Shown here in pieces: positions 1 through 46,204 of a DNA stretch of 64,000 nucleotides (positions within the stretch are counted from its first letter, which is position 1; every line of letters begins with the position of its first letter). The notes under the pieces were generated by a model that searched no databases, was not told the origin of the DNA, and saw only the letters and a list, made by a program, of their open reading frames with translations. The translations under genes and the position numbers were made by a program. This stretch comes from Okamejei kenojei (taxonomy: Eukaryota): assembly GCA_035221665.1 (NCBI GenBank), contig CM069159.1, positions 19,530,001 through 19,594,000 on the forward strand, written 5' to 3'.

Positions 1-132
1 ATTTATTTGTTTCTCTTACATCTGGACTGGGTGAGTTTTTCCAACATTTTGGTTCATGTTTCAGGTTTTAACATCTGTAGTTTTATGCATTAACTTCCTT
101 AACTTTCTTCATTCAACTTAGTAAAATTCCAC

Positions 133-163
133 CTTCTTCAATCTTTCTGCAAGAACTGCATTC
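133..163 (-). CDS. Candidate cytoplasmic mini-exon of VJ-C1 gene (ECSSCRKIEE)
   Basis: tgttttag acceptor and AAG|gtggaa donor; 31 nt; phase 0 start fits the TM exon if that exon is corrected for a 1-nt indel. Confidence 0.35.
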
Positions 164-203
164 CTAAAACACTGTAATTATTCAAACAAATGTTTTTTCT
201 CGC

Positions 204-332
204 CTCTAGATCCTTGCTGAAATGGATAGCTAGAAATGTCCACCATGTTCCAGCTAACTCAATAATTGAGATTGAGAAAAGCATTGTTGAAATTTGTTAC
301 CAGATAGAAGTATTTGCTATGTGGTCCATGGA
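204..332 (-). pseudogene. Candidate transmembrane exon of VJ-C1 gene with 1-nt frameshift
   Basis: gatttatag acceptor, phase 1 after C1. Reads FHGPHSKYFYLVT, then after a 1-nt shift ISTMLFSISIIELAGTWWTFLAIHFSKDLE. Donor is GAG|gcgaga (GC). The uncorrected frame stops early. Confidence 0.45.
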
Positions 333-872
333 CTATAAATCTTTGCAGGAATCAATAGGAGTGACAACATGCCTCATTGGGTGATGTTCTATCCCATTGT
401 CACCAGCCATGCTGTTTCGCTACATTTACAACATTGCATAGCTATCAGCATGGATTACTCACCAGGTAGGTCCCATTCAAAAATAATTAATTACAAACTG
501 TTAACTCTCAATCATCAGCAATGTCCATGAAAAGTAATGTTGGCATTGTTATCCTATGGAACGTGCTCACTTGTAGCCTACACCCTAGTGCTTAGTTTGG
601 ATTTTGATAGAACCACTTCATTTCACACCACATCCTGGCCAAATTTTCTAAGACTACAAGATCCAGAAGACCTTCACTACAGTCAATGTGAAAAACAGTC
701 AAAGCTGCATTTCAGACTGAATAAATCAAGGTGGGAGGACAGTTTAATGATGTATCCATTTCTGACATTACCTAGTTATTTAAAAGGCTAGGTGAAATAC
801 TTAGAACTTAGCCCATGTCCATGGTATGTAATTGGAAATTGTAATGAAAGAGCATAAAATAAACATACTTAC

Positions 873-1199
873 AATTAACATTGAGTGTTATGTGTTGCAT
901 TGTCCACTCTTTGCTTGTTGCATGAAGGACCTGACAAGTACAAACTGTCCTGTGGTCTTGCAAGGTGGGAGTAAAACTAATTTGACTTGTTGCGTTAAAT
1001 GAGCCATCAGAGTTCCTGGAGGGGGAGAGTTTTGTGGTAATATTAACATCTGGTTTTGTAGCTTGAGTGTTGTGAAGAAGTTGCCATCGCATTGTGATGT
1101 TCTCAGGATAAAATCCCCATGCATGGCAGTACAAAACAGATGCTTTCTCTGCTATTAAATCTCCCTGAGTCATTAGAATTTTTGGTGTAGATTCTGGGA
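873..1199 (-). CDS. Ig C1-set domain exon (tapasin/SIRP/MHC/antigen-receptor-type C1)
   Basis: VPESTPKI..LYCHAWGFYPENITMRW..NSDGSFNATSQISFTP..CQVLHAT; ttgttacag acceptor and T|gtaagt donor; 327 nt, phase 1-1, open frame. Confidence 0.9.
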
Positions 1200-1320
1200 C
1201 TGTAACAAATAACATGAAACAAAGTTATATGCTGCGCTATATACTTACATACTTATCCTTTCGTGCTAAATTTAAAAAAAACAAAGCATGTTAATTAGCA
1301 TTTGTCCACTTAATGTATAT

Positions 1321-1415
1321 AGGTCTGAAGAAGGGTCTTGACCTGAAACATCACCCATTCCTTCTCTCCAGAGATGCTGCCTGTCCCCCTGTGTTACATC
1401 AGCTTGTGTGTCTAT
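1321..1415 (+). repeat. Penelope-derived short repeat with degenerate hammerhead core
   Basis: ggtctgaagaagggtcttgacctgaaacatcaccc followed by the family tail gatgctgcctgtccc. Confidence 0.65.
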
Positions 1416-2252
1416 CTTTAATGTAAAAAGCAATTCCACTTCAGTAAGTGTGAATCAGAAATATTATTTTTACCTGGTGATAACCAATGTCTTGTAGACC
1501 CACATAAAAGCCTTTCCATGAGTGTTATAAATTGTATTGTTAATTGTTAACTTGGACACAGAGCATGACCTACTCTGCTTTGGCCCCCTTTGGTTATGGC
1601 TGACTTTGGGTGTCTCCAGGATGTCATTCCCTCTATGGGGACGCCTGTGCATGACTTTGTTTAACGTGGGGAGACTGTTGCACAGACAGCCACCCCACAG
1701 TCCTTGACAGATCTGGGTCAGGATCCAGTGGCATGGAGTCCAAGACGACCGGAGACCCTTTGCTACTGCAGCCTTCATCCGCCTTCCCAGCTGTTGTGAC
1801 GCTCCCAAAATGTCAGCCATCATCCTCCGCCTGTTCCACTGTTGAGGACTTGGTTGGATTGCTCCTTGCCCACTATTGTTTTTGATATAATCTATATTAA
1901 GCCAAAGACCTCTCAGGGCATATGTTGGAAGGGACACAAAAAGCTGGAGTAACTCAGTGGGTCAGACAACATCTCTGGAGAAGGAACAGGTGACATTTCG
2001 GGTCTTGACCTCTCAGGACCTTATTCACCATTCAGTTGTGAGTACTGAGGGGAGAAGTAAACAGAGCCAAGATCCTTTATGTCATGGGTTGGTCAACTGT
2101 TCAGGAGAGGGGGAGTAGAGTTAGGGCCAAGGAAGGAATAATTGTCGAGATCTCTGTAGGAAGCAGAACAAATTGACAGTGATCCATTTTTCCAGAACAA
2201 ATAATAGAGAGTTGTTATGCAGGAATAGACAGAGTACAAGTTATATATTTAA

Positions 2253-2324
2253 CCTGTTTAGTGCCACCCCCGAGTATACTTGGGTCATTGGCCAAAAGTG
2301 AAAACAAACTTGGCAGTGAACAGG
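2253..2324. mobile_element. 72-bp piggyBac-like MITE
   Basis: TTAA on both sides (2249-2252, 2325-2328); imperfect TIRs cctgtttagtgcca / tggcagtgaacagg. Confidence 0.55.
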
Positions 2325-3312
2325 TTAAACAGAGATGCATTTTACATAAGAGATGGATTTAACAATTGTTGGTGACCTGAAACTGAACACCCAGGATTAG
2401 AATGTGACAAGGAAACCAGAGATATGTCCAAAAAGAAAGTGCAACATTCTTGGATGAAGATACTGCAGAAGGATGAGGAAGGGATGTGGCAGTCTTGATG
2501 AAGGGGGTCAGTACATTGCAGGAGAGAGAGAATAATCTGCCAAGGAGAAGAGAAAAATGTAAAGACCATGGTAAGAATCTTTCAGACTTTGTAGATTAAG
2601 CAGTGATGAATGAGAATTTTGGAGGCGGTTATAGAGTTATAGTGCTGTATAGAATGGAAATAAGCCCTTTGGCCCACCATACCCATTCCCGACAAGGTTA
2701 GGATTTGGATCTAGTCCCATTTGCTTGCAGCTTACAACCTAAGTGTATGTGCACATAGGTATCTAACCTGCAAACTACTAAATTATTCAGTAGATTACTG
2801 AATATAAATAGTAAGATTAAACGAGACCTTACCAGTTTGAAGTTTGATCTTTATTTTATAAGGAGTTACGTTGGTGATTACGTGAAGAAGTCCCGCCAGT
2901 TCGCATGCGCATCAATCTTCAAAGCAGCGGTGTGAAAACACAAATAACAGTTATCAAAGTAACATAGTAAGATGAGCAACTTGAGAACTACCAGATGACC
3001 TTTGTGAGAGAGGGTTGGACGTGGAGGGCACGTAATCACCAACGTTACGTCTTATAAAATAAAGATCAAACTTCAAACTGGTAGGTTCTCGTTTAATCTT
3101 ACTATTTTACTTTGGAGTCACACGAGTGATTCCATGAAGGGTTCAAAGCTTCGTGATTTCATGCCGCAGATTCAAATCCCGGCTTCTCACTGCATTGATT
3201 GACTCGGAATGAGAAATAATCAATAATGCATTAATGTTGACATTGCATTAAATGCAGTAACAAATTTATTTGAATAACAAAAGAACAGTAACCCCTCTAA
3301 CACAGGGGGAAC

Positions 3313-4286
3313 TTAAACAGAACATAATACGGTATTAGCAAACAGCCCCGGATCGGCAATCGGACGATAGTAGAAATGTTGAAAAGCCAACTCATTTGAC
3401 CACCCGGCGGCTGCGAGAATATGGTCGATGGGCACGTCTATCGCCCTTGCCACCGACGTTGCTGCTGCCCTAGTGAAATAAGATGTAAAAACATCAGTGT
3501 TAATACCTGCATCAACCAATACTTATTTCAACCACCTCGAGATAGTCTGTACTGACACTCTTTGTGTGGCTTCCTGTAACTGATAAACAATCCTGTTTCC
3601 ATATTTCGTAAGGCCCTCGTAGCTTCAATGTATTGCAGCAAATGTGTCTTTACACATAGACATGGATCCATGGGATATGCCGAAAAAACAATCTTGAACC
3701 CTGTCACACCTGGCCTGCTCTGTTTGAGTAGGTCATAAATGTAGAACGTAACATTATCTGCAGCCACTTCCATTCTGTCTAGCTGCAGCTTTTGCAATGT
3801 CTGCACTCGTTGTGCTGATACCCGAGCCATGAGCATGACCACCTTCATGGTGACTTTGGCCAAAGTCAGAGTTGTGTCAGGGGTCCACTGACGAAGCAGC
3901 TTGAGGACCAAGCTTACATCCCAGATTGCCATATACCTGGGTTTAGGAGGTCTGGAGTTAAAAATTCCTTTCACCAATCGAGAAACGAGAGGATGAGACC
4001 CAATAGGATGTTCTTCTGACCCCATCAATAAGTACGAAGACAATGCACTTCTAGCTGAATTGATCGCACTATAACTCAACCCCTCATCGTAATGGAGTGT
4101 TGACAGAAACTCTAGAATATGCAAAATACCTGCCGTACAATATTCAATATTATTTTGTACACAGAAAACTTCCCATTTTTTAACATCAGAAATATACTGC
4201 TTTTGAGTACCCATCCTCCAGGCTGCAGTGATCATGTCCACAGTTCGCCCAGACAGTCCTCGTCCCAGATATGGCCTTCTTAAAAC
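3313..4286 (-). pseudogene. DIRS copy 1 tyrosine recombinase (frameshifted near 3530)
   Basis: SAINSARSALS, QRVQTL (catalytic R), KQSRPG, (H)STRAAATS-like, AAGWSNE..F..FY motifs; ORF begins at a cag splice acceptor with no ATG at its start. Confidence 0.9.
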
Positions 4287-7026
4287 CTGCAAATTAACAA
4301 ATCAATACGGTCATATAACGGATGCCATTCGCCAGTTACCAGGTGCACCAGTAAATCCCTTCGTTTGGGAACAGCCATCAGGGGTTGTATCATCAACTCC
4401 AATATCAAAGGGAACCATGGCTGAGTAGGCCAGTCACCCCTGAAGTGGCATCCTGCTTGATTTTAAGCAGACACCGACTTATGAGACAGAATGGTGGAAA
4501 TGCATATATAAACATACCACCCCAATGTAGCGAGAAAGCGTCAGTTGCTACTGCCCCAGGATCTGGTTCCCATTACACATATTTAGGTAGCTGGTGGTTG
4601 AGTCTGGATGCGAACAAGTCGATATCTGGCCTTCCATATTTGACAACTATATCATTGAATACGTTCTGATTCAACATCCATTCTGTGTTGTCATGGAGTT
4701 TTCGTGACCTGGTGTCTGCTACTATATTGAATCTACCTGGTAGATAAATAGCTGAAAGCCAAATATTGTTGTCAATACTCCAGGTCCAGAATTGATTAGC
4801 CAGTTTGTCACAAGATGCCGACTTGATTCCACTCATGTGATTAACATACACCACTGCCGTAGTGTTGTCAATTTGAAGCCTAACATGCAGGTTAGTTGTG
4901 TTAGAACAATAAGCCTTGAGTCCATAAAAAACTGCCAAAAGCTCTAAGTAGTTAATTCCCCATGTCTGCAGAAGCAATGGCTCTTCCGCATTCCATCTGC
5001 CTCCACAGCTGGAGCTCGTATCAGTGGCACCCCACCCTAGTGCAATGACATCAGTCTGTAAGACCATGGAAGGCTGTTCAATCACTACTTTGCGGAACTA
5101 CTGGAGACATGCTGAATCCACCACTGCAGGTCAGTAACAGCATCTGCTGATAACTGCATGGGCCTATTATAATGGCCCGAATGTATCCTGAGTGCCTGTT
5201 CCTTTGCCCTCTGTAACTACTTGTAGTGCAAAGGCCCATACTGAACTTCCGGAAAAGCTGCCACCAGTTTTCTGAGCAGGCTGGCCACCTGTCTATTTGA
5301 AGGTTGTTGCTCCTTCAAAAGCTTAATGCAACCATCAATTAGTTCCACTATTTTCTCCCTGGGCCACTAACATGTGAATTGAATCAATTGTGAAACCCAA
5401 ATAGTCAATTGTTGTAAGTGGTGTTAATTTGGATTTCTCTGGATGAATGATAAACCCCAATTTTTCAAAAGTGAATGTAACAACTGCCACAGATGCTTCA
5501 GCTAATTCATTTGTTTGTCCTATAATTAAGATATCATCCAGATAAGCCATAACCACATGACCCTGGGCTCTAAGTAGCCCCTATACTGGCTTTAACAATT
5601 TAGTAAATATTCTCGGAGCTGAAGTTAACCCATTAGGCAGTGCCTTGAATTGGCATAATTGATTAATCCAGGTAAATTTCAAATGCTTTCTATCTACCAA
5701 ATGAATAGACACTGAGTAATATGCATCTTTCAGATCTATAGTTGCCATATAACATCATCTGGAAAGCAGTTGCTTGGCAGGAACAAATGTTTCCATTTTG
5801 AAGTGTCTATACTGTACAAAAGGGTTAAGACTTGTCAGATGCAAAATAATTCTACATCCTCCGTCCTTATTTGGTCGGGGAAAAATATTTGACTTGGTGA
5901 ACCGACCTCTCAATTACTACTTTATTACACAAATGTTCAAGTTCAGCCTGAACCTCCATTACTTCCATTTGTGAAAAATTGAGTGTTCTGCTAGGAACAT
6001 GCTGGAGGGGCAAATCACCATTTGGATCGAACTCAATTCGAAACCCTTGAATAATACTCATGATAAATGGATCTGAGGTAATTTGCTTCCTTTCCTCATG
6101 GAACAGATGTAATCTAACCCCAACTTTCGGCTGTGTTGTACTTAATATGTTCCCATGAGAACCAGGCCCACCTAACTCCTTGGTAACTGGTGTGACCTGC
6201 TGTCCCCAGTTCCTGGCGGGAAGCCACACGTTTATCCGTGTTCCCGCTGTAGAGTACCAACTGCGCATCTGCGGCGACGGCCGACCTGTTCCTGGTGTAG
6301 ACCCGGAATCTGCACCTCTTCTGTAGGGATACCTTCTCCTCACAGATTTGCCGACGATCGGTGTCTTAATCAAGCCCACCGTTTTTGCTTCGTCATCCAA
6401 CTCCTTCACGCGATTCGCGAGGTCCTCCCCAAAGAGTAGGTTGGGTGGCTGCACATTGGTGGGCTTGCAGAGCGCTGCAAACTTAGGGTTGATGCACTCT
6501 TCCTGAGACAATTGATCTCAAAGTGGGCGCTGCACAGCAACTCTAGTGCCTCTTGATGCGTCTCCGACAGATGCCCTCCATCCATTGTTCTAGCGAATGC
6601 CGTGATTCCTGAACCCAGCAGCTCCAGGATTCTCTGCAGCTTTATTTCCTGGGCACGCATGCGCACGCCCATCTGACCCCATATCACCTGGTTTACTGCT
6701 GGTACCTTTAGCAACACGCAGTTCCTTGGGGTCTCGTGCGTATGCAACAGGTGCTCCATTTGGGATAACCGTTCAAAAACAGTGTCCAGCTCCGGAGGGG
6801 AATCTTCCCGGCCCGACTCCCCCGATTCCGTGGGCCTGACAGACTTGTGCATTGCCTTACTCCTGACTGGCGCAGGCTCCGTGCTTTGCAGCACAAAGTC
6901 TGCAGTCGCCCCGCTCCCAGCCGGCGACTGTGCACGGGTATGAGGCAGCCGTTCACAGACCGCACTCCCTCAGCTGTCTACGGATTTTGCTCCGGCTCGC
7001 CTCTTCCCCTTGCCCGTCTTGTCCAT
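4280..7026 (-). pseudogene. DIRS copy 1 gag-pol (gag, RT, RNase H, N6-adenine MTase-like), several frameshifts
   Basis: caccATGG start at 7026; ORFs 6406-6894, 5867-6511, 5335-5556, 4573-5085; gag reads into the RT N-terminus in one frame. Confidence 0.9.
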
Positions 7027-7984
7027 GGTGCTACCTAAAGAGAAACAACACGGCACCACAGCAAAACGGACTCGAACTCTAGCTAAGTTTTTCCCACTTA
7101 CCTGGAGTCTAAATACTTACCGCTGGAGGAGCTCTGTTCCTTCCAGCCTCCGTGCGCCAATGCGGCTGACGTAATGACGTGCATGCGCACTGGCGGGACT
7201 TCTTCACGGAATCACTCACGTGATTCTGAAGTAAAATTTAACCTAAACAAGTATTGAAATATAGGCAATCCAAATATTTGGAAGAGTTGTATTTTAAGAA
7301 TTGTGAAGCCAGCTAATAGAGTCACACAGCGTGGAAACAGGCCCTTCGGCCCAACTTGCCCACGCTGACCTATATGCCCCATCTACACTGGTACCACCTG
7401 CCCGCACTTGGCCATTAACCCTCTAAACCCATCCTATCCATCCTGCCAATACCTGGAGCAGGTAATAATAATTAAAGAGGCACAAAATTAATTTCAGTGA
7501 TAGTCTTCATACCTAACCTATGATTCTTTGCATTAAAACTGCAGATGCTGGAGATCTGAGTTGAAAATAAAATTATTGTAAACGCTGAGCTAATCAGGCA
7601 GAATCTGTGGAAAAATAAACTTTAATTGTTTCTCTTAACACAGTTGTAACCTATGCTGCTCAGTGTTTCTACCTTGGAGAAGAACTTTATTTTATGATCC
7701 CTTTACCTTGGCTACATAACTGCACAGACTTCATTTGACAGAAACATTCAACATGGGTAAATTACTTATTCTTCTTCTTGGTTGGAATGAATTACAATTA
7801 ATTAGCCCGACTTCCCATGGAACGTGATTAATCTATATCAGTGTATCTAAATGTGGTATGATATGTAACTATAATCAATACACATATTATAGGAGCTGCA
7901 TTTCTGCAGAATTATATAAATACTTTATCATAAACCTGTATAGTGTAGAGACTGGAGATCATCATAGTATTGCAAATACTTTAC

Positions 7985-8322
7985 CATAAACCCATATTCG
8001 TGTTCCTTGGCCCTTTTCATGAATTGGAGGGAAGACATTTAGTACATTCACCTCACAAGTATATGTGTAAACAGAGTGACCAAACGATACATTTTCAATC
8101 TTCAGTGATACCGTACAGTGTTTGAAACCATCCCAGAGGGGGTGAGGATTGCAGAGCTTTTGTAAGTAGCATCAGCCCCTTTCGGCGATGTCCGATACCA
8201 GGAAACACGGAGCCAGGCATCCACACTTGCATTATAAGTAAATGTACAGTTTAACGTGACGGATTGGTTGCTCCATACACTGACCAGGCGTGGCTGGGTC
8301 AACTCTGTGATCAACGGAACTC
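7985..8322 (-). pseudogene. Ig V-set exon with germline-joined J-like G strand (NKp30/CD28/TMIGD2-like); 1-nt frameshift
   Basis: GVPLITELTQPRLVSVWSNQSVTLNCTF..LRVSWYR..[shift near 8130]..GFKHCTVSLKIENVSFGHSVYTYTCEVNVLNVFPPIHEKGQGTRIWVY; ttccatcag acceptor and G|gtaaag donor; 338 nt, one short of a symmetric phase-1 exon. Confidence 0.85.
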
Positions 8323-9036
8323 CTGATGGAACATAAATAAATTTGTTATTTTTACTTCCATTAATAATCCCGCAGAAGCTCACTTTAAACAACACCAGTG
8401 TGCGGGGATCATTGATCAGCGCGAACCTGGTGGGCCAAAGGGCCTGTTTCCAAACTGTATCTCTAAATTAAACTAAACTAAACTAAACTAAACTTAACTA
8501 AAAGCAATGCTGAACTGGAGACAAAAACAGAATGCTGGCAGAACTCAGTGGGTCAAGCAGCATCTCGGGAGGCTGAAGGTATAATATGTTTTGGGTGAGT
8601 CCCTGTAGGGGGGGATTAGAAAAGATGACCAATATGTAGCAGGATGTGGGAGAATGGGATGGGGATTAGTTGGCAACAGTTAGAACCAGATGGGGAGCAG
8701 GGAATGTGCAAATGGATCAATGGGTGGGGTGGATGAGATGAAAGCAGATGGGGGAAGAGGGCCTAAATTTAACATTGGCTTTCCATTGCATCAATTATTT
8801 TTTAAATATATAATTGTGCATTTTTTTTAATTTATCGTACATTTTTATTTTATTGGATTATTAATTTTTGATGTCCATTTATTGAAATGAAGCCATTTTT
8901 AATTATTTGGTATATTGAATGGAGATGCATGAATTGGGGTATAAAGTATTCATTAGATAACTGATTATAAAAGTAACCTAAACAAGTATTGAACTATAAG
9001 GCAATCTGAATATTTGAGAGAGTTGTATTTTAATAA

Positions 9037-10678
9037 CTAGACTAAGCGGGACCTGTTGGGTCCCAGTTACACGGGAGGCCTGGTCTCCCAATGCAACCTG
9101 TTCCCCAATGCAATATTCCACCACTCATCCGTTCCCACAATGCAGCCCGTCCCCCCAACGCAATATTGCACCACTCATGCATAGCCCCCAACTGCTCAGG
9201 CATGGCTCATTTCCCCTCATCACTAGGCAGTCCCTCCCCCTCCTCTTCACCCTCCCTCTTCTTTCCACTCTCCTCCTCCCCTCTCCAATCCCTGCCTCAC
9301 CTCTCCTTCCCTCTCCTTTCCCCTACCCTCAGTCATTCCCTCCCTCCATAACCCCCTCTCCAATCCTCTCTACCCCTCAATCCCCTACTCCTCACATCCC
9401 CTATCCCCCCCCCACCTGACCTCCCCACTGCCCTCCACTACCTCTATTCCCCACTCCCTATCTTCTCCACTCCTCTCCATCTATTCCCCCTCCTCCCCCA
9501 TTCTCCTCACTTTCCCCCTCTCCCTCCCTACCCTTCCTCTCCCACAATCCACCCACTCTCCCCCCTCACCTCCGCAGGATCTTTCCCCTCTCCTCCTCCC
9601 CTCCCCCAATCCCTCCCTCACCTCTCCCTCCCTCTCCTTTCCCCCACCCTCAGTCACTCCCTGCCTCCATCCATAAAAAGCAGAATCTGCAGTTCCTTCC
9701 TCCACAGGTCATTCATTGTCAGCTGTGGTTTAGATCCTGTTGACTCGACGATTGGACCAGTTTGCATCGTTTGTGTGTGTTACTCAAACTCCACGTGAAC
9801 TGCTCGGCCACCCTGCAACCTGACTTTCCAACCCTCCCTCTGCCCACTCCGGCTCAGCCGCCGCTCGGCACATTCCCATCCTGTCCGACCACCCGCTGCT
9901 GCCGCTCGGCCCATCCCGTCCCGTCCCCGCCCTGCCCTCCCACTACTGTCCCTGCCCACCCACTATTTTTTTTCTCACCAATATGTAATTACTGATTCTG
10001 TTCTATTCTGTTTTGTAGTTTTTGCACAATCCGCAAGCATTGTCACCTTCATTTCACTGCACATCACGTATGCGTATGTGACAAATAAACTTGACTTGAC
10101 CACCTGCCTGCCTGCTCGCTGCCGCCGCTGGGCCTCTGGGTCACAGGTCGGGGAGAGAATGGAGTTGCTGTTCGTCAAAGTAGGCACAACGAGTTTTTGA
10201 TCAGCTGGTGGGGAAGATCTCCTCTGAGAAAGCCGTGAGGGTGAGTTACAGGAGGTGACGGACCCTGGGGGGGGGGACCGCCATTGCCACAGAGGGTGGG
10301 CGGGGGAGAGGTGTGAGTGATGAGGGAGAGAGAGACGGGGCCAGGGCCTTCCACTGGGTCTCCACTGCCACCACCGGTGGTGGGGGAGACGATAGACAAG
10401 TTACTGTGTGGAGGGGAGAGAGGAGTTTGTGAATGAGGTGGGACAGGCCGCCGCTGGTGGGGCAGGTGTGGTTTTAAAGATTTTTCAACCCCGATAACTT
10501 TTACAATATACTACCGATCGGAACGAAACTTGTGGCAATCGCAGCACAGGAGAACAGTGAGTAACCTGGCGTAAACTATCGTGTGCTGTTTTTGTGCAAA
10601 TATAACACCCGCGCAAACCGGAAGAACACAAGATCAGAGTTTTAGTTATGCATAGATAGAAAATAGATAGAAGATAGA
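9037..10678 (-). mobile_element. Non-autonomous Helitron with C/T-rich low-complexity interior
   Basis: Minus strand begins TC and ends with hairpin gggacccaacaggtccc then CTAG; A|T insertion; flanks rejoin to match the paralogous empty site near 7300. Confidence 0.7.
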
Positions 10679-10976
10679 TTGTAAAACAAACAAATACTTG
10701 ACACAAATGGAGTAGATACAAATAATGGAAGAAGGGTGTAGATGAATGGTACATAGAATGGGGACTGGGTAGCTGATGTGGCAAATAAAGTGGTTTACAG
10801 GAGGATCATTTTAGGATAAGATCCTTATTATTGGGGTGGACGCGTTGAATTAAAGGGTTTGTTTCCATGTTGTTTCACTCAACAGTATAACAAGTAAAAC
10901 TCACATTGCATCATCACCTATGATTCAGGTCAATTTTCTGAAACCTCTGTCTTCAGGAAAAGCCAATTTCTTCTTC

Positions 10977-11039
10977 CTTGTGGCAGACGGCACACAGCTC
11001 TGTGGAGAACTGAACAATCAGAAATGAACCTGTAGCCAT
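10977..11039 (-). pseudogene. Candidate signal-peptide exon of VJ-C1 gene (decayed donor)
   Basis: caaATGG start, MATGSFLIVQF..; ends CCACAAG|gaaga (gtaaga lacking T); homologous to a plus-strand copy at 46152-46204 that retains AG|gt. Confidence 0.35.
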
Positions 11040-11214
11040 TTGTATTGGGTAGAAGGCAAACGAAATGGACCTTAAGAGTGTCGGAAAGAACTGCAGATGC
11101 TGGTTTAAATCGAAGGTAAATACAAAATGCTGGGGTAACTCAGCGAGACAGATCTCTGGAGAGAAAAAATGTGTGACTGTTTCGGGTCGAGTCCCTTCTT
11201 CAGATATCAATTAG

Positions 11215-28313: not shown

Positions 28314-30673
28314 GAGCGGCTAAGCGACGTCCGCCACAATGAACGTCCACTCGTACGGGCGGGAGTTGAAGGTAAGTGCGAAGGTCCGCGTACCGTATGT
28401 TCGGATGGGCACGGAGCCCCGCTTACCAGCACGGGTGTCACGCCCGGTCGGAGGGAGGTTGCTGATGATTCCACCGGAGTTCTCTGGGAAAACGGCGGCT
28501 GGAAACGTACTGGAGGTGATAGTAACACCAACGGTGCCTACCGCGAGTCCCGGATCACTGATGTGGCTCCATGCTAGAATTCGTGGGCGGGGCCTCATGC
28601 GGTCCTGCTGAGACGAAGTGCGCGCTGCTGCAGACACACGGTTAATGGCGCCGCCATCTAAATGTTTCGTTAGCCAGAGTTCGTCGGCCCATTTGGCTAG
28701 CTGCAGACGATTGGCGAAATCCACACCTGCGAACATGAGGTGGACATCGTCTGGCATTTGTTCTAGGAATGCCTGCTCGAATAGCAGTCACGGGCGGTGG
28801 CCGTACATTAACGCGAGCATCTCGGATATGAGGACTGATGGCTTGCGATCTCCCAAATCGTCCATGTGTAGAAGGCGGGCAGCGCGATCCCGGCGGCTGA
28901 GCCTGAAGTTGTGCAGTAGGAGGACCCTGAGGCTGTCGTACTTGGTGGCCGATATGCAAACTGCGCTGGAACTACACTTCCACATGTGCAAACCATACCT
29001 GTGGCTGCTCAGGCCAAAACACTGGCAGATTGAGGCTGACGCCACTCTGATGGGCGTCGGAACAGCGACGGGAACTGAATCGTCCTGCATATCGGCGTCC
29101 AATATCAATTGGGCGCGTCAGATCATTTAGCAGCATCCAAGAAACACTTTATTTTAAAACTGGAGATAGAAAGGAGCGGTCTTTGTACACCGTTGCAGGT
29201 GAGAGCTTTGAAGGAGGCAGATATTCACAGGGAACAGGCATGAAAATAAAGCTTGGATTCATGACATACTTAAGTCGATATATCATAGCAGCCATTAACT
29301 CATTGAGTTGAGAAACAGGAATGGAGGCCCAAATGGCTCTACTTCTGAAATAAAACCAGTTAATGCTGGGAATACTCAGCAAGTCAAGCAAGAGCTTATA
29401 GCTCTATCATGGTTACCACTTCATAGACCTCTCAATCTCTTATAGATGAACTGTAGGTCACATTATTCCATGGACAGTTGACTATTGCATCATGATATAT
29501 TCCTCATTTTGTTGTGTATTCTTTACAAAGATTGTAAGTTATAACTAGAAATGACTTCACGAGTGAGATACATGATGGATGCATTGAAGTAAATCATGAC
29601 AGAATGTGCTAATGGAACGATCCTCAAGGAAATGAGAGCAATCTAAAAGAGGCACAACATGTTTCAAGTGGATTTTGTTTGTTGAAAAGAAAGGCAAAAG
29701 GGTTGAATTCTCAGGAACATGTGTTGGATAGTTAGTGGAATGTGATTTTTGTGGGTGGGGGTGTGTGTGGGGTGGCAAAATAAATGATACATTGAAAATA
29801 GCCACAACATTTTTTCCATTGTGATGGTTGCCTTGAAGGCAAAGTCCTCAACTTTCTCAGAAAATAATTACAGATGCTCCCCTGCAATGAGTATGTTATT
29901 CCCTTCTCATATCCCATGGTAGGAAGGGTTTGAAATGTCTCTTCTGCTCAAATTATGACTACATTATCAATAATTTTCTTGAAAGAATGTGGTTTTGATT
30001 TTGACACACAGACAATTGGAGGAAATCTCATGAGTTCTGTATCCCTGTTCATCTGAATGAATTCATCTGTGCAGTTTCAACTTTGTCATTGAATTGAATG
30101 ACTGGTGACATCTTATAACATCTTGTGAATAAGTCTAAACTTCCAGCACTCCAACAAATGAAGAAATGTGCTTTATTTATACCAAACAATTATAACACGC
30201 AGAGCAACATTTCTTACAGTGGCGTTCTCCGAAGAGGTAAACTCTCCTGTAAGCTGTACACTAAAACAATACATCAGCAGAGTTAGTCATATGCGTTAAT
30301 TGCAAAAAAGGTACACGCTGAATATTACATGTTACAGGTGATTTGATGTAGATGTTGGTAAGTTCACCTGAAGTCTAACATTGTTTTCAGTGAGTTTAAT
30401 GGTTTCTAAAACAATGCACATTTATTATAAGATGGAAAAAATGCTGGAGAAACTCAGCGGGTGAGGCAGCATCTATGGAGCGAAGGAAATAGGCAACGTT
30501 TTGGGTTGAGAACCTTCAGAAGGGTCTCGACCCAAAACTTTCACCCGCAACATTCTCCATTATGAGATATGACCACAGCCACAAAAGGATTCTCCTGATC
30601 ATTTTGATGGAAGCCAAACTGAACATAAGTGAGTAAATTATTGGTGAGTACTAGGCATTTAACAATGCTTTAA

Positions 30674-34034: not shown

Positions 34035-34134
34035 TCAGAATTCAGAAGTAATTATGTTGTCTTCTTGGCTATTAACATTTTTCGGAGAGTCACTTTTGGC
34101 CAATCTGCTTTGGTTCCTGTGTTGCTTTGAATTC
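34035..34134 (-). CDS. Terminal cytoplasmic exon of receptor gene 2 (RNSKQHRNQSRLAKSDSPKNVNSQEDNIITSEF*)
   Basis: Strong acceptor ttttctttctcattag; phase 2 matches the upstream 25-nt exon; open to TGA. Confidence 0.55.
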
Positions 34135-34798
34135 CTAATGAGAAAGAAAAATAGCAAAGTTGTGAGGAATAAGTTCTGAAATTATTTTGTGATGTTCAAT
34201 TAAGAACCACCCAGGAATATAAATCTAGAGTGATTATTCACAGCTTCTTCCTCAAACACACAACCAACTCTGTCACTCCACCCAATCCATTTACTTTTTT
34301 ACTAAAATGCCTTGGGTTATTTACCAATATGAACATCAGTACAAGCAAATTCTACTCAGAGTTTAATGAATGTTCAACTATAAAGAATGACAAAGACATA
34401 CCCGTATTCTATGATTTATCTTCTGAAACTTATTTCAAATGTTCCCTCAGGATCAATTTTGGACACCCTCTTTTCCACACTGTGAAGATATCCAGTTAAC
34501 TTTCCAAGATGTAGAGATGACACAAATCTCTAACTGCCTCCATTTTGTTATTCTATTTATCTGCTATGCACCTCTGGCCAAGTTACTCCCAGTTTACCTC
34601 CAGTTTTACTTTGGAGTCACGTGAATGATTCCGTGAAGAAGACCCGCCAGGCCGCACCAGTACGTCAGTCGCATTGACGCACGGAGGCTGCGAGGAACAT
34701 AGCTCCTCAAGCGGTAAGTATGCAGACTCCAGGTAAGTTAAAAACTTTTGACTGGAGTTTGAATCTGTGCTGGCCGGTACGCTATACCGAGTGCTAGC

Positions 34799-37700
34799 GT
34801 GGACAAAACAGGGAAGGGAAAGCGGCGCGTTTCAAACGGCCGCGGCAGTCTAGGCTTGGAAGCCCTGCCTCATACCCCTGTTCAGTCGCTAAGTACAGAA
34901 ACAGCGACTGCAGACTTAGTGCCACATAGCACAGAGCCATTGCCATTAGGGCACAAGGCAACCGATAAGTCTGCTAGGCCCACGGAGTCGGGAGATGATT
35001 CCTCACCGGGGCTGGATAGAGTGTGTACTTGCCTATCCGAAGTGGAGGAACTGTTGCATACAGTCCTCCAAAGAACTTCACTCCAAGAGAAGGAGTGTCA
35101 GCGCTTAGAGAAAGAAGCGCCAGCAGCAACAATGCTGCCAGAGATTCCTTTTCCATTTGAAGAGAGTGCAATGGGCCAGATTAGTCCTGAGCCCGATTCT
35201 GATGGGGAAGTTCAACTTGGAGAAACAGAACTACCAAATGTTCCACCACTGGCACTTCCATTTGCTGTCCCATCAGGAGCAGGTGAGCCACTAGGTGACG
35301 AGCTGGCTATCACAATTAATTACATGGTATCTCATCAGTTTCAGGAGCTTACTATGGATGAGACAGCCAAAAAACTTGAGTCTCCAAGTAACTGTGAAGT
35401 GTTAAGAGTTCCAACGGTGAATCAAGTCATTTGGGGTCAGATGGGACGCAGCATGTGAAGCCAAGAGATAAAAATGCAAAGAATGTTAAAGTTATTGGCT
35501 GCTGGTATTACAGCATTTGCAAGAACAATGGATGGTGGTTTTGTGACCAGAACACACCAAGAGGCTCTAGGGTTGTTATGCAACACCTATTTTGAGATCA
35601 ATGGTCTCAGGAAAAGGGCTATAAGGCCCACCATTAATCCTAGACGGTACACAAAAGGCTGGAGAAACTCAGCGGGTGCAGCAGCATCTAAGGAGCGAAG
35701 GAGATGGGCGATGTTTCGGGTCGAGACCCTTCTTCAGACTGGTCCTAGATATGCTGCGCTTTGTAAGCCAGCAAGTATACAACTACCTGATCTGCTGTTT
35801 GGCGCAGATCTAACCAAGCAGGTCAAAGAAATAAATGAAGACGCTAAAACAATGAGTCTGAGAAGACCAATGATGCCCGGCAGACAGCTGAAGAGAATGT
35901 ATCCCTACAGAACCACCTCAGCATCCGGGGCTACTCCAGGGACAAGGCGGTCCTCAGCACAGGGACGAGGATGGTATCCCTCGGTGGGAGCACGAGCAAC
36001 TATGGAGGCCACTGCCAGAGGCTGGAGTCAGCAGGGTGCACCAGTCACCAGAGAGGTAAGTGGACCTGGTTCTCATAAAAACATATTAAATGTAACTCAA
36101 GGAAAAATTGGTGGTAGATTACGGCTTTTTTATAACGAATGGAAGCAGTTTACTTCAGATCTATTTATCAGGAGTGTAATTCGAGGGTTTCGGATTGAAT
36201 TTATTCCAAATGGTGCTTTACCTTTCCAACATGTTTCTGTTAGAGCACTTTATTTTTCACAAACAGAGGTAATAGAGGTTCAAGCTGAACTCACAAAATG
36301 ATATAACAAAGGTGTAATTGAAAAAGACGGATCATCAAGTCCATCAATTTGTGTCAAATATTTTTCCCCGCCCCAAAAAGGACGGAGGATGTAGAATCAT
36401 TTTGAATCTAACAAAATTAAATCCATTTGTACTCTACAGACACTTTAAAATGGAAACATTGGTTACGGCCAAGCAACTCATTTCCAAAGATTGTTATATG
36501 GCTACAATAGATCTGAAGGACGCTTATTCTTCAGTGCCTGTTCATTGCGAGCATAGAAGGTATTTTAAATTCATTTGGATGAATCAATTATGGCAGTATA
36601 AGGCACTGCCGAATGGATTGACCTCAGCTCCTAGAGTATTCACTAAATTGTTAAAACCAATGTTGGGGTTGCTTAGAGGTCAGGGCCATGTAATTATGGC
36701 CTATCTGGATGATATTTTAATAATTGGACAAACAAAAGCTTTAGCCGAAATATCAGTGGCAGTTGTCAAATCCACATTTGAAAAGCTGGGGTTTGTCATT
36801 CATTTGGAAAAATCCAAACTTACGCCAAGTACCACAATTGATTATTTGGGGTTTTCAATTAACTCAATCAAAATGGTAATTACTTTGCCAAGTGAAAAAA
36901 GTACAGAGCTAATTGAAGATTGTGTAACGCTTTTAAACAAGCATAAACCTTCAATTAGGCAAGTGGCAAGGCTTCTTGGAAAATGGTAGCAGCCTTTCCA
37001 GCAGTCCAATTTGGGCCTTTGCATTATCAGCAGTTACAAAGAGCAAAAGAACAGGCACTTAAGGTACAATTTGGGCAGTATGATAGGCCCATTCAATTAT
37101 CAGCAGAAGTAATTACTGATATTTTATGGTGGATTCAACATGTCTCCAGTAGTTTTAGCACAATAGAGCTGGAATAACCTTCCTTGGTCTTGCAGACTGA
37201 TGTAAGTGCACTTGGATGGGGTGCCACAGACACAAATTCAAGTTGTGGAGGAAGATGGAGTTTGGAAGAAGCTTTGCTTCTGCAGACATGGGGAATTAAC
37301 CATTTAGAACTTTTAGGAGCATTTTATGGGCTCAAAGCTTATTGTTCTAACAAGAGAGTCTGCATGTTCAGCTCCAAATTGATAACACCACGGCAGTCGC
37401 ATATGTCAATCACATGGGTGGTATCAAGTCGGTACCTTGTGACAGACTGGTAAACCAAATCTGGATATGGTGCATTGATAAACACATTTGGCTCTCAGCT
37501 ATTTATCTGCCAGGAAAATTTCATACAGTGGCAGACACCAGGTCACGACAATTCCATGACAACATAGAATGGATGTTGAATCACGATGTGTTCAAAGACA
37601 TCATTGCCAAATATGAAACACCAGATGTCGACTTGTTTGCATCTAGACTAAACCACCAGCTTCCTAAATATGTGTCATTGTAACCAGATCCTGGGGCAGT

Positions 37701-37983
37701 AGCGATTGACACTTTCTCGCTGAATTCGGGGGGTATGTATATTTATGCATTTCCACCTTTTTGTCTCATGAATCGATGTCTGCTTAAAATCAAGCAGGAC
37801 AATGCTTCAGGGGTACTGGTGATACCCAACTGGCCTACTCAGCCATGGTATCCTTTGATCCGACAGCTGATGACACAACCTTTGAAGGCTGTTCTTAAAC
37901 AAAGGAATTTATTGGTGCATCCAGTGACTGGCGAATGCCATCCGTTGTATGACCGTATTGATTTGTTAATTTGCAGATTCTAA
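34799..37983 (+). pseudogene. DIRS copy 2 gag-pol (gag, RT, RNase H, MTase-like)
   Basis: gag continuous with RT apart from nonsense codons and indels; IDLKDAY, LPNGL, YLDD, DNTTAV, DLFASRLN..YAFPPF..WPTQPWYP. Confidence 0.92.
35645..35742 (-). repeat. Penelope-derived hammerhead repeat inserted in-frame in DIRS gag
   Basis: 7-bp TSD tcctaga (35638, 35743); net +105 nt; absent from copy 1 (INPKFAALCKP). Confidence 0.85.
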
Positions 37984-38965
37984 GAAGGCCATATCTGGGG
38001 CATGGATTGTCGGGTCGAACTGTCGACATGCTTACTGCATCTTAAAGATCGAGTACTCAAAAGCAGTATTTTTATTATGTAAAGAAATGGGAAGTTTACT
38101 GTGTACAAAATGATATTGATTATTGTACAGCACGTATTTCACACGTTTTGGATTTTTTGTCAACTCTCTACTATGATGAAGGACTAAGTTATAGTGCAAT
38201 CAATACAGCAAGAAGTGCTTTGTCATCATATTTAGTGATGAAGTCAGACAATCATTCAATTGGATCTCATCCTCTTGTGGTTCGATTAATGAAGGGCATG
38301 TTTAATTCCAGACCTCCCAAACCTAGATATATGGCTATTTGGGATGCAAGTATAGTCCTTAGGAAACTATGTGAGTGGTTTCCTATATCATCTTTGTCTT
38401 TGGCCAAAATTACCATAAAAGTGGCCATGCTTATGGCGTTGGTTTCAGCACATTACAAAAATTACAAAAGTTTCAGACGTTACAAAAATTACAGTTAGAC
38501 AGAATGGAAACTGCTGCGGACAATGTTACATTTTACATTTATGACCTCCTCAAACAGAGCAGGCCAGGTGTCACAGGGTTTAAAATAGTATTTGCAGCAT
38601 ATCCTACGGATCCATCTTTATGCGTAAAAACACATTTGATGCAATACATTGCAGTTACAGAGAGTTTACGTAACATGGAGACAGGATTGTTTATCAGTTA
38701 TAAAAAAACACATAAAAGAGTGTCAGTTAACACTATCTCCAGGTGGCTGAAACAAGTTTTGATTGATGCAGGTATTAACACAGATGTGTTTACATCTCAT
38801 TCCACTAGGGCAGCAGCTACTTCGGCGGCCAAAGCGAAGGATGTGCCCGTCGACCATATTATGGTGGCCGCCGGATGGGCAAATGAGCTGATGTTTCAGA
38901 ATTTTTGTCATCGCCCGATTGTTGATCCAGGATTGTTTGCTAATGCCATTTTAAGTTCTATTTAA
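37977..38965 (+). pseudogene. DIRS copy 2 tyrosine recombinase
   Basis: SAINTARSALS, KQSRPG, SHSTRAAATS, AAGWANE; one nonsense codon and a small duplication/frameshift; starts at a ttaatttgcag acceptor. Confidence 0.92.
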
Positions 38966-39519
38966 CTGCCCTGCTATTAAAGAATACTGTTGTTTGTTTA
39001 TGTTATTAAATAAACCCTATTACTACATTGAATGCAATGTTACTACTAATGCATTATTTCTCATTCGAGTCAATCAATGCAGTGGGATGCCGAGTTTGTA
39101 ATCTGCGGCATGAAATCACAAAGCTTTGAACTCTTCATGGAATCACTCACGTGACTCCGAAGTAAAATAGTAAGATTAAACGAGAACTTACCAGTTTGAA
39201 GTTTGATCTTGATTTTATGAGGAGTTACGTTGGTGATTACGTGCCCGCCACGCCCAACCCTCTCTCATAAAAGATCACATGGTAGTTCTCGAGTCACTGA
39301 TCTTACTATGTACTTCGGGGTTGTTTTTGTGATTTCTTACCGCTGCTTTGAAGATTGGTGCGCATGCGGCCTGGCGGGTCTTCTTCACGTAATCACCAAC
39401 GTAACTCGTCGTAAAATCAAGATCAAACTTCAAACTGGTAAGTGCTCGTTTAATCTTACGATTGTCTCAGTGTGACCCGGATATGTATATAAATGAAACA
39501 TCAGAAGTTAAATGCAATT

Positions 39520-40572: not shown

Positions 40573-40597
40573 CTCCATTTGCACAAGCAGTCCCGAT
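40573..40597 (-). CDS. 25-nt cytoplasmic exon of receptor gene 2 (DRDCLCKWR)
   Basis: ttttattgtatag acceptor and GAG|gtaagc donor; phase 1 to 2, bridging the TM and terminal exons. Confidence 0.55.
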
Positions 40598-41871: not shown

Positions 41872-41961
41872 CAGTTAATTTGCCTTTCCTGCAGCAGAGC
41901 AGTAACAAAATCACAGTCGTCACGAAGATTGGCACCGTTACAAATCGGACGGGGAAATGAT
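41872..41961 (-). CDS. Transmembrane exon of receptor gene 2 (HFPVRFVTVPIFVTTVILLLLCCRKGKLT)
   Basis: ttttttgttgtcttacag acceptor and G|gtaaac donor; 90 nt, phase 1-1; 18-residue hydrophobic run followed by RKGK. Confidence 0.75.
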
Positions 41962-45782: not shown

Positions 45783-46151
45783 AAACACCTATTTTTGCTT
45801 CTTCATTCCTGGTTATTGTGTGTAGATTGATGATTTAAAAAAAAATCAATTTTAAAATATAGCTGTAACGTAAAGAAATGTTTATAAAGTGCAGGGGTTT
45901 AAATGCACTGTAAATGCTGGTATTTAAGCATGTTCCTTGGTGTGGTGGCAACGCTTAAAGATTTTAACACAGAAAAGATTGATGTGAATGCCAATTGTTT
46001 TGTTCATTAAATTAGTGAGCTTTTATCATGCATTTCTATGATATGAAATTTTAAACAAAATAAACATATTTTGAAAATTTTCCGTTAAAATGTGACGTGT
46101 CTAGTAAGAATAGCCTAAGGTCCATTTAAGTTTGCCTTCTCCCCAATACAA

Positions 46152-46204
46152 ATGGCTACATGTTCATTTTTGATTCTTCAGTTCTCGATGGAGCTTTCCA
46201 CAAG
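46152..46204 (+). pseudogene. Inverted paralog of the candidate leader exon (MATCSFLILQF..)
   Basis: 46115-46204 (+) is homologous to 10977-11075 (-); AG|gtcaga donor. Confidence 0.35.

Follow-up and report, generated by a model that had tools for sequence, protein, structure and literature searches.

What kind of gene, in a skate, joins a V domain that already carries its J-type strand in the germline to a C1-set constant domain? This question is raised by a minus-strand, antigen-receptor-like gene of Okamejei kenojei, part of which lies in a window of 64,000 nucleotides (nt) (GenBank assembly GCA_035221665.1; C29:19530001-19594000, where C29 is contig CM069159.1). A first-pass annotation of this window had seen in the gene the germline-joined form proposed for the antigen-receptor ancestor that preceded RAG. 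We read the 864 kb surrounding the window; for positions beyond the window, its numbering is continued to the left or right, or C29 positions are used. Our reading, to which we give a probability of roughly 0.72, is that the gene is one copy, frameshifted and probably dead, of what is likely the activating partner in an ancient head-to-head pair of receptors with the domain order VJ-C1-I-TM (TM, transmembrane), and that its V exon was probably converted. The observed basis is the exon structure, two deletions, a TM arginine and short tail versus a partner's tail with ITIMs (immunoreceptor tyrosine-based inhibitory motifs), and discordant domain trees. The gene is made up of the following parts.

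7985..8322, minus strand: VJ exon, a single exon of 338 nt with AG/GT ends, phase 1-1, a GxGT G strand and an extra Cys pair.
873..1199, minus strand: C1-set exon, 327 nt, open, with AG/GT ends and phase 1-1.
1..872, minus strand: intron between the C1 and I-set exons, containing the earlier-proposed TM exon at about 290.
C29:19528532-19528219, minus strand, left of the window: I-set exon, 314 nt, 7 nt short and frameshifted.
C29 about 19504896, 19503312 and 19501765, minus strand, left of the window: TM, mini and tail exons, with a clean reading in the overlapping assembly copy.

The head of the gene is much as it had been described. The loop resembling complementarity-determining region 3 (CDR3) and a GQGT strand both lie within the single exon at 8322-7985, and a scan of 7700-8600 for recombination signal sequences (RSS) gave 0 matches on both strands, in agreement with the claim that no RSS splits the V exon. 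The 5' half of this exon matches Pfam V-set (E 1.5e-5). The proposed junction to an intact C1-set exon in phase 1-1 holds at the level of exon ends and phase, and the C1 exon is open, matches Pfam C1-set (E 4.5e-12), carries GFYP and NxDGSF motifs and is 67% identical to the stingray orthologue P0061.

What follows C1 departs from the two-domain order V-C1-TM. An I-set exon, off the left end of the window, comes next, with a length of 314 nt versus the 321 nt expected from the stingray orthologue. The TM exon formerly placed at about 290 lies in an intron, where 0 of 9 AG acceptors at 250-420 give an in-frame, orthologue-like TM segment; the second assembly copy is identical in letters in this region. 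Reading of the TM, mini and tail exons is noisy in the window's own contig and clean in the overlapping copy, in which the TM segment reads FPVRFVTVPIFMTTVILLLL and resembles those of the sawshark, stingray, catshark and paddlefish proteins. The gene has the order VJ-C1-I-TM(Arg) and a short tail.

A phmmer search with an intact V domain against 1.84 billion representatives returned 46 matches, the best of which have three Ig domains and come from skates, electric ray, sharks, paddlefish, conger, bonefish and coelacanth. A profile search adds partial models from stingray and two sharks, and the next matches outside the family are SIRP-beta1-like proteins. Intact homologues of sawshark, skate, whale shark, paddlefish, coelacanth and eel have the Pfam order V-set/C1-set/I-set, and the family spans sharks to paddlefish, eel and coelacanth. 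No tetrapod member was found among the matches named through cluster look-ups (10 of the 46, the weaker ones being mostly unexamined). The C1 exon alone gave no match in a word-index protein search (16 candidates), and the atlas matches are generic V-set, Siglec and CADM clusters.

All 23 V domains compared have GxGT and four invariant Cys. Among 20 proteins scanned, 12 of the 13 with long tails carry [SIVLT]xYxx[ILV] motifs, which resemble ITIMs or the related switch motifs (ITSMs), five have a TM arginine and zero such motifs, and two are short-tailed without arginine. Skate, stingray, two sharks and paddlefish have the TM motif R-x-[VI]-[ST]-x-P-[IL]-F in common, and uninterrupted models of the activating orthologue exist in sawshark, stingray, catshark and paddlefish. 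In the skate, the two types have the features of paired receptors: the genes are linked and oriented head-to-head, their V domains are 77-80% alike, and a short tail with a TM arginine on one side stands against three ITIM/ITSM-like motifs on the other. The window gene is a broken, likely activating member of this family of VJ-C1-I paired receptors, which is old and apparently unnamed. Several RefSeq models named Siglec-13-, MAG-, sialoadhesin-, hemicentin- or SIRP-like belong to this one mislabelled family, whose automatic names include Siglec-5/12/13/14-like, MAG-like, sialoadhesin-like, hemicentin-2-like and SIRP-like. The suggestion that the gene belongs to an uncharacterised chondrichthyan family agrees with the literature searched, in which a V-C1-I paired family of these fishes is not described; supplements and the primary PRARP, VJC1 and UrIg accounts lie outside that search. 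The accessible parts of PMC10751288 and PMC3031540 (skate MDIR, CD300-like) describe nothing resembling it.

The family might have been described under another name, as a three-domain PRARP, an orthologue of Xenopus VJC1, or a fish SIRP or Siglec-like lineage. We consider this unlikely. PRARP and Xenopus VJC1 are reportedly non-rearranging VJ-C1 proteins with an inhibitory motif, and the window gene shares with them a single-exon VJ without RSS. They are, however, said to be two-domain and associated with the major histocompatibility complex (MHC), whereas the window gene and its orthologues have an I-set domain after C1; we know of no PRARP with such a domain. As far as the accessible text of PMC10751288 goes, PRARP/VJC1 genes are indeed non-rearranging VJ(-C1) genes, but PRARP is MHC-linked. 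The RefSeq names (Siglec-, MAG- and SIRP-like) would favour a described lineage, but at least five different automatic names have been given to the same family, which suggests an absence of curated orthology.

The family resembles SIRP-alpha and SIRP-beta1 in plan: a single-exon VJ is followed by C1, there are ITIM and charged-TM partners, and these are the nearest named profile matches outside the family. However, SIRP proteins are VJ-C1-C1, whereas the third domain here scores as I-set/Ig_3 and not C1-set, the V domain has an extra Cys pair, and identity is about 25-30%. SIRP-beta1 also has a TM lysine where the present family has arginine. The membrane-proximal domains resemble those of Siglecs: MAG 120-306 and Siglec-8 159-332 match positions 131-339 of the family profile (D2-D3) and score best for this part. 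The sawshark protein, modelled by AlphaFold (pLDDT 79), has an ectodomain that matches MAG, CD22, nectin/Necl and SIRP best, with MAG and CD22 at the top. The V domain is of another kind. In Siglecs, the F strand of V has a sialic-acid-binding arginine and no canonical F-strand Cys, whereas 23 of 23 family V domains have an F-strand Cys (YxC) and then the J-type GxGT strand. The chromosome context is different as well, and Siglecs linked to DAP12 have a TM lysine rather than an arginine.

Three further systems share parts of this architecture. NKp30 (NCR3) and the CD28 family (CD28H, CD28HL1-3, CD28X) have a joined VJ and a CDR3-like loop, rich in proline, with GxG after it; NKp30 also has an arginine near the outer TM end, as here. 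The EIP/PPP motifs and synteny markers of the CD28 family were not seen at the window locus, and orthology to CD28H/TMIGD2 was dropped in view of the missing EIP motif and the three Ig domains. NKp30 and CD28H were not among the fold matches listed, from which no exclusion follows. According to the accessible part of PMC11599192, these proteins have a single V domain, as opposed to three Ig domains in the window family; only a second, partial activating-type copy in the skate may be V-only. UrIg and UrIg2 are likewise elasmobranch proteins with a non-rearranging VJ plus C1, and UrIg2 is the top whole-chain Protein Data Bank (PDB) sequence match of the C1 exon, each single domain being weak. 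They differ in having 3-11 C1 domains, in forming dimers and in being MHC- or AgRC-linked (PMC12227049, accessible part), and they have no I-set domain and no paired signalling, whereas the window family has one C1 and one I-set domain. CADM/Necl proteins, nectins and CRTAM have a three-domain V-C1/C2-I layout and similar folds, and relatives share an ancestral chromosome with human 11q23-25. CADM3 (P0068), however, has no GxGT strand, a conserved adhesion-type tail and no ITIM/Arg pair, and the family profile found no Ig exon in 200 kb beyond JHY, which is a weak test.

The history of the V exon differs from that of the exons that follow it. The window V is 77-80% identical to the V domains of skate ITIM-type genes versus 53% to the sawshark activating V, whereas C1 and I are 56% and 54% identical to the sawshark orthologue and 66% and 62% to the stingray one, but only 30-35% to the skate ITIM-type genes. 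Trees were built from 23 V, 22 C1 and 22 I rows, with breaks read as X and rows without a domain omitted from the tree of that domain. In the V tree, rows cluster by lineage, with all eight skate V domains, activating and inhibitory, in one clade (96/94); in those of C1 and I, they cluster by signalling type. A clade uniting the three activating V domains of chondrichthyans is rejected by the approximately unbiased (AU) test (p-AU 7.6e-5), as is a skate-only clade for C1 (1.5e-72) and for I (1.5e-76). At the DNA level, high identity to the ITIM-type genes is limited to the V exon and short flanks.

About 7950..8400, minus strand: tract where DNA identity to the ITIM-type paralogues is high, at about 77-92% for each 60 columns of the exon.

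The trees and this narrow tract together show the pattern that gene conversion leaves in paired receptors, SIGLEC11/16 among them, and it is likely that the V exon was overwritten in this way to match that of the ITIM-tailed partner. The coelacanth pair is near-identical across all three domains, which makes a separate origin or a separate homogenisation likely there. In the accessible part of PMC5701461, SIGLEC11/SIGLEC16 (and SIGLEC5/14) offer a parallel, being inhibitory/activating pairs with head-to-head orientation, V-exon conversion and, for SIGLEC11/16, a null allele that is common on the activating side.

The gene had also been described as damaged, by a 1-nt lesion in each of the leader, V and TM exons. 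Damage there is, in the form of frameshifts in V and I, but the lesions are of 10 and 7 nt and are not 1-nt consensus slips. Instead of a single-nucleotide change at 8130, three intact paralogous V exons nearby, 348 nt long versus 338 nt here, place a 10-nt frameshifting deletion near 8160, and the I exon has a 7-nt frameshifting deletion that is present in both assembly copies. A contig from another organism (run X6, record 18) matches 8090-8259 with no other letter changed, yet is 10 letters longer, which indicates that the intact V form exists in a relative. In the same run, at window position 8059, the V copy in one contig of a relative carries another deletion, of 4 nt; a broken V may recur in the group.

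We consider the window gene very probably a true pseudogene or null allele. We give little probability to the alternative of an intact gene in which assembly errors from poor polishing produced the frameshifts, even though the contig begins about 11.5 kb before the window's left edge and has an end full of indels. Neither deletion lies in a homopolymer. Agreement between the assembly copies is highest at the I exon (1 difference in 351 columns), and the noisy second V copy also lacks most of the 10 nt.

Several observations weigh against the reading of the gene as a dead, converted activating receptor. Assembly quality is poor in the region, which has two N gaps and contig ends that overlap and are rich in errors; the assembly copies possibly represent one haplotype, and their agreement would then not be independent of read errors, and the run contigs compared have no established tie to the assembled individual. 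The V-C1-I-TM splicing is predicted from exon ends in genomic DNA. The V tree had one non-skate activating V only, and the trees carry long-branch warnings. Between the V domains at 131 kb and 158 kb, the nonsynonymous rate exceeds the synonymous one (dN 0.152, dS 0.072), a non-significant excess (Fisher p 0.17), and positive selection on V was dropped on that value. No leader exon was found for the window gene by a scan of 8330-34000 for hydrophobic phase-1 ATG exons, which gave one weak, unsupported candidate at 29584; in the ITIM-type genes, the family leader lies about 780 nt upstream of V. The leader formerly placed at 11039 proved to be part of a repeated element, has the same stop in a second minus-strand copy and is unlike the family leader MQLLLKLL.

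10733..11077, no strand assigned: low-copy element holding the earlier-proposed leader, likely non-coding, with low read depth.

This element has four copies, the others being at 46116-46195 (opposite strand), at about 133.8-134.3 kb and at 137.0 kb. A final difficulty concerns signalling, since adaptor pairing and ITIM function are predicted from motifs only. The genome has two zeta-family adaptor loci (C12:5921049 and C24:20998417), of which we take one to be CD3-zeta-like and the other FcR-gamma-like. A 2014 survey, in its accessible part, reports no FcR-gamma in cartilaginous fish (PMC4016189).

We hypothesize that in species with an intact gene the arginine near the outer TM end would associate with a zeta-family adaptor (FcR-gamma or CD3-zeta) bearing activation motifs (ITAMs), through the adaptor's acidic residue, as is known for NKp30, NKp46 and LILRA. 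The three ITIM/ITSM-like motifs of the partner may recruit SHP-type phosphatases and act as a brake. Both partners would bind through the shared V domain, and gene conversion would keep the ligand the same for both. The putative ligand is probably a self surface molecule mimicked by microbes; the activating copy would then serve as a counter-decoy, and it is often lost.

The locus holds, in order, the window gene, a second and partial activating-type copy, and two plus-strand ITIM-type copies, one at 158-175 kb with a stop at the end of the TM exon and one at 220-249 kb that is a complete ITIM gene. These paralogues, oriented head-to-head with the window gene, bear the automatic RefSeq name Siglec-13-like. 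The V family is confined to this locus by genome search, and a genome search with the stingray orthologue gave no other close copy of the gene. The parts of the second activating-type copy are these.

41884..41961, minus strand: TM exon, reading HFPVRFVTVPIFVTTVILLLL, with an arginine in the TM segment and a GC donor.
40573..40597, minus strand: mini exon, 25 nt.
34035..34134, minus strand: last coding exon, coding for a short tail without tyrosine motif that ends in ITSEF.

No C1 or I exon was found upstream of these in this assembly. A candidate V, intact, lies past an N gap at about 131167-130820 (C29:19661167-19660820), and, if the join across the gap is right, this copy would be a single-VJ receptor with an arginine in TM and an NKp30-like shape. 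The V is absent from the window's contig, where about 10.7 kb is gone beside a long interspersed nuclear element (LINE) at 43.5-45.8 kb. GC donors occur both in the TM exon at 41884 and in the leader exon of the ITIM gene (C29:19749991). In the first ITIM-type copy, the stop comes directly after TM (C29:19704738-19704836, about window 174.7 kb); short tails are also seen in the skate RefSeq models P0004 and P0002, and a tailless decoy form may be conserved.

Gene counts at the locus are unreliable, as two probable false duplications (window -32.5k..9k and 46k..200k) lie at assembly gaps. The N gaps near the gene are at -12051..-11552 and 123865..124364; -32.5k..-12.3k duplicates -11.5k..9k, and 46k-124k duplicates 137k-200k. 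The differences between the first two copies increase toward each contig end, which fits overlapping, poorly polished contig ends. The V-C1 intron also contains a mobile element.

2807..7240 (approximate ends), minus strand: broken retrotransposon, presumably DIRS-like, with reverse transcriptase, RNase H-like and tyrosine-recombinase frames.

A second element of this tyrosine-recombinase type, at 34763-39463, is also broken, lies on the opposite strand and is about 79% alike.

The closest named proteins in the protein comparison are those of skates. To the right of the receptors lie a PALP (CBS-like) gene, a BSX-like homeobox gene (BSX being our own recognition of it), JHY (by Pfam) and a GH35 gene, with the CBS-like PALP gene at C29 about 19.81 Mb, between the receptor cluster and the BSX-like gene. 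JHY and BSX map to human 11q24, and human CBS is at 21q22, a paralogue of 11q23-25. A Pfam scan of 150 flanking open reading frames gave one match, the GH35 exon at the right, and the left neighbours are without a name. About 20-25 kb past the 3' end of the locus are two tandem V-set exons (C29:19471380-19471880 and 19477408-19477773) with an extra Cys pair, no F-strand Cys, weak Pfam V-set matches and no PDB sequence match, which we take to be reminiscent of CD200R-type domains. Further clusters of tapasin/B7-H6/SIRP-like C1 exons, 30-39% identical to the window C1, occur at C18:49.8-50.3 Mb, C12:0.12-0.49 Mb and C26:36.06 Mb. An HSP70 cluster, a likely MHC marker, sits on a different contig, C30, and the receptor locus is likely not at the MHC contig.

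The claim that the gene has the two-domain VJ-C1-TM form of the pre-RAG ancestor does not agree with its third, I-set domain or with the arrangement of Arg-TM and ITIM partners. More broadly, the gene could be a germline-joined VJ-C1 descendant of that ancestor: GxGT is present in 23 of 23 V domains, but a joined VJ is common to CD79, NITR, SIRP, CD8, NKp30 and PRARP and is not diagnostic (PMC11599192, accessible part). The best Foldseek matches of the V model (pLDDT 90) are Ig light-chain and T-cell receptor (TCR) V domains, but this ranking reflects the abundance of antibodies in the PDB, and in a wide fold search the V model was not separable from other Ig folds, I-set and other Ig domains scoring equal or higher (best Z 13.0, TCR 11.9). 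In the family profile, the segment covering V and C1 finds Ig light chains and UrIg2, and the C1 has the GFYP and NxDGSF motifs, but D2-D3 are Siglec/CADM-like, the locus is not near the likely MHC contig, and UrIg2 is offered as a better-linked candidate in the accessible part of PMC12227049. With the third I-set domain added to these points, we regard such descent as very improbable. There is a similarly slim chance that an ancient jawed-vertebrate pair with a VJ-C1 head and a Siglec/CADM-type stalk is a surviving sister of the gene that the RAG transposon split, which would place the ancestor among paired innate receptors on an 11q23-25-type chromosome and not in the MHC.

For the skate itself, the likely dead copy in the window tells little more than that an activating partner was lost. 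Few innate on/off receptor pairs are known from cartilaginous fish. Here the locus is compact and single, the TM motif is kept between skates and paddlefish, and the V was re-matched within the skate lineage, and these properties make the pair a tractable model for the age of the Siglec/SIRP decoy logic and for the choice of adaptor in sharks.

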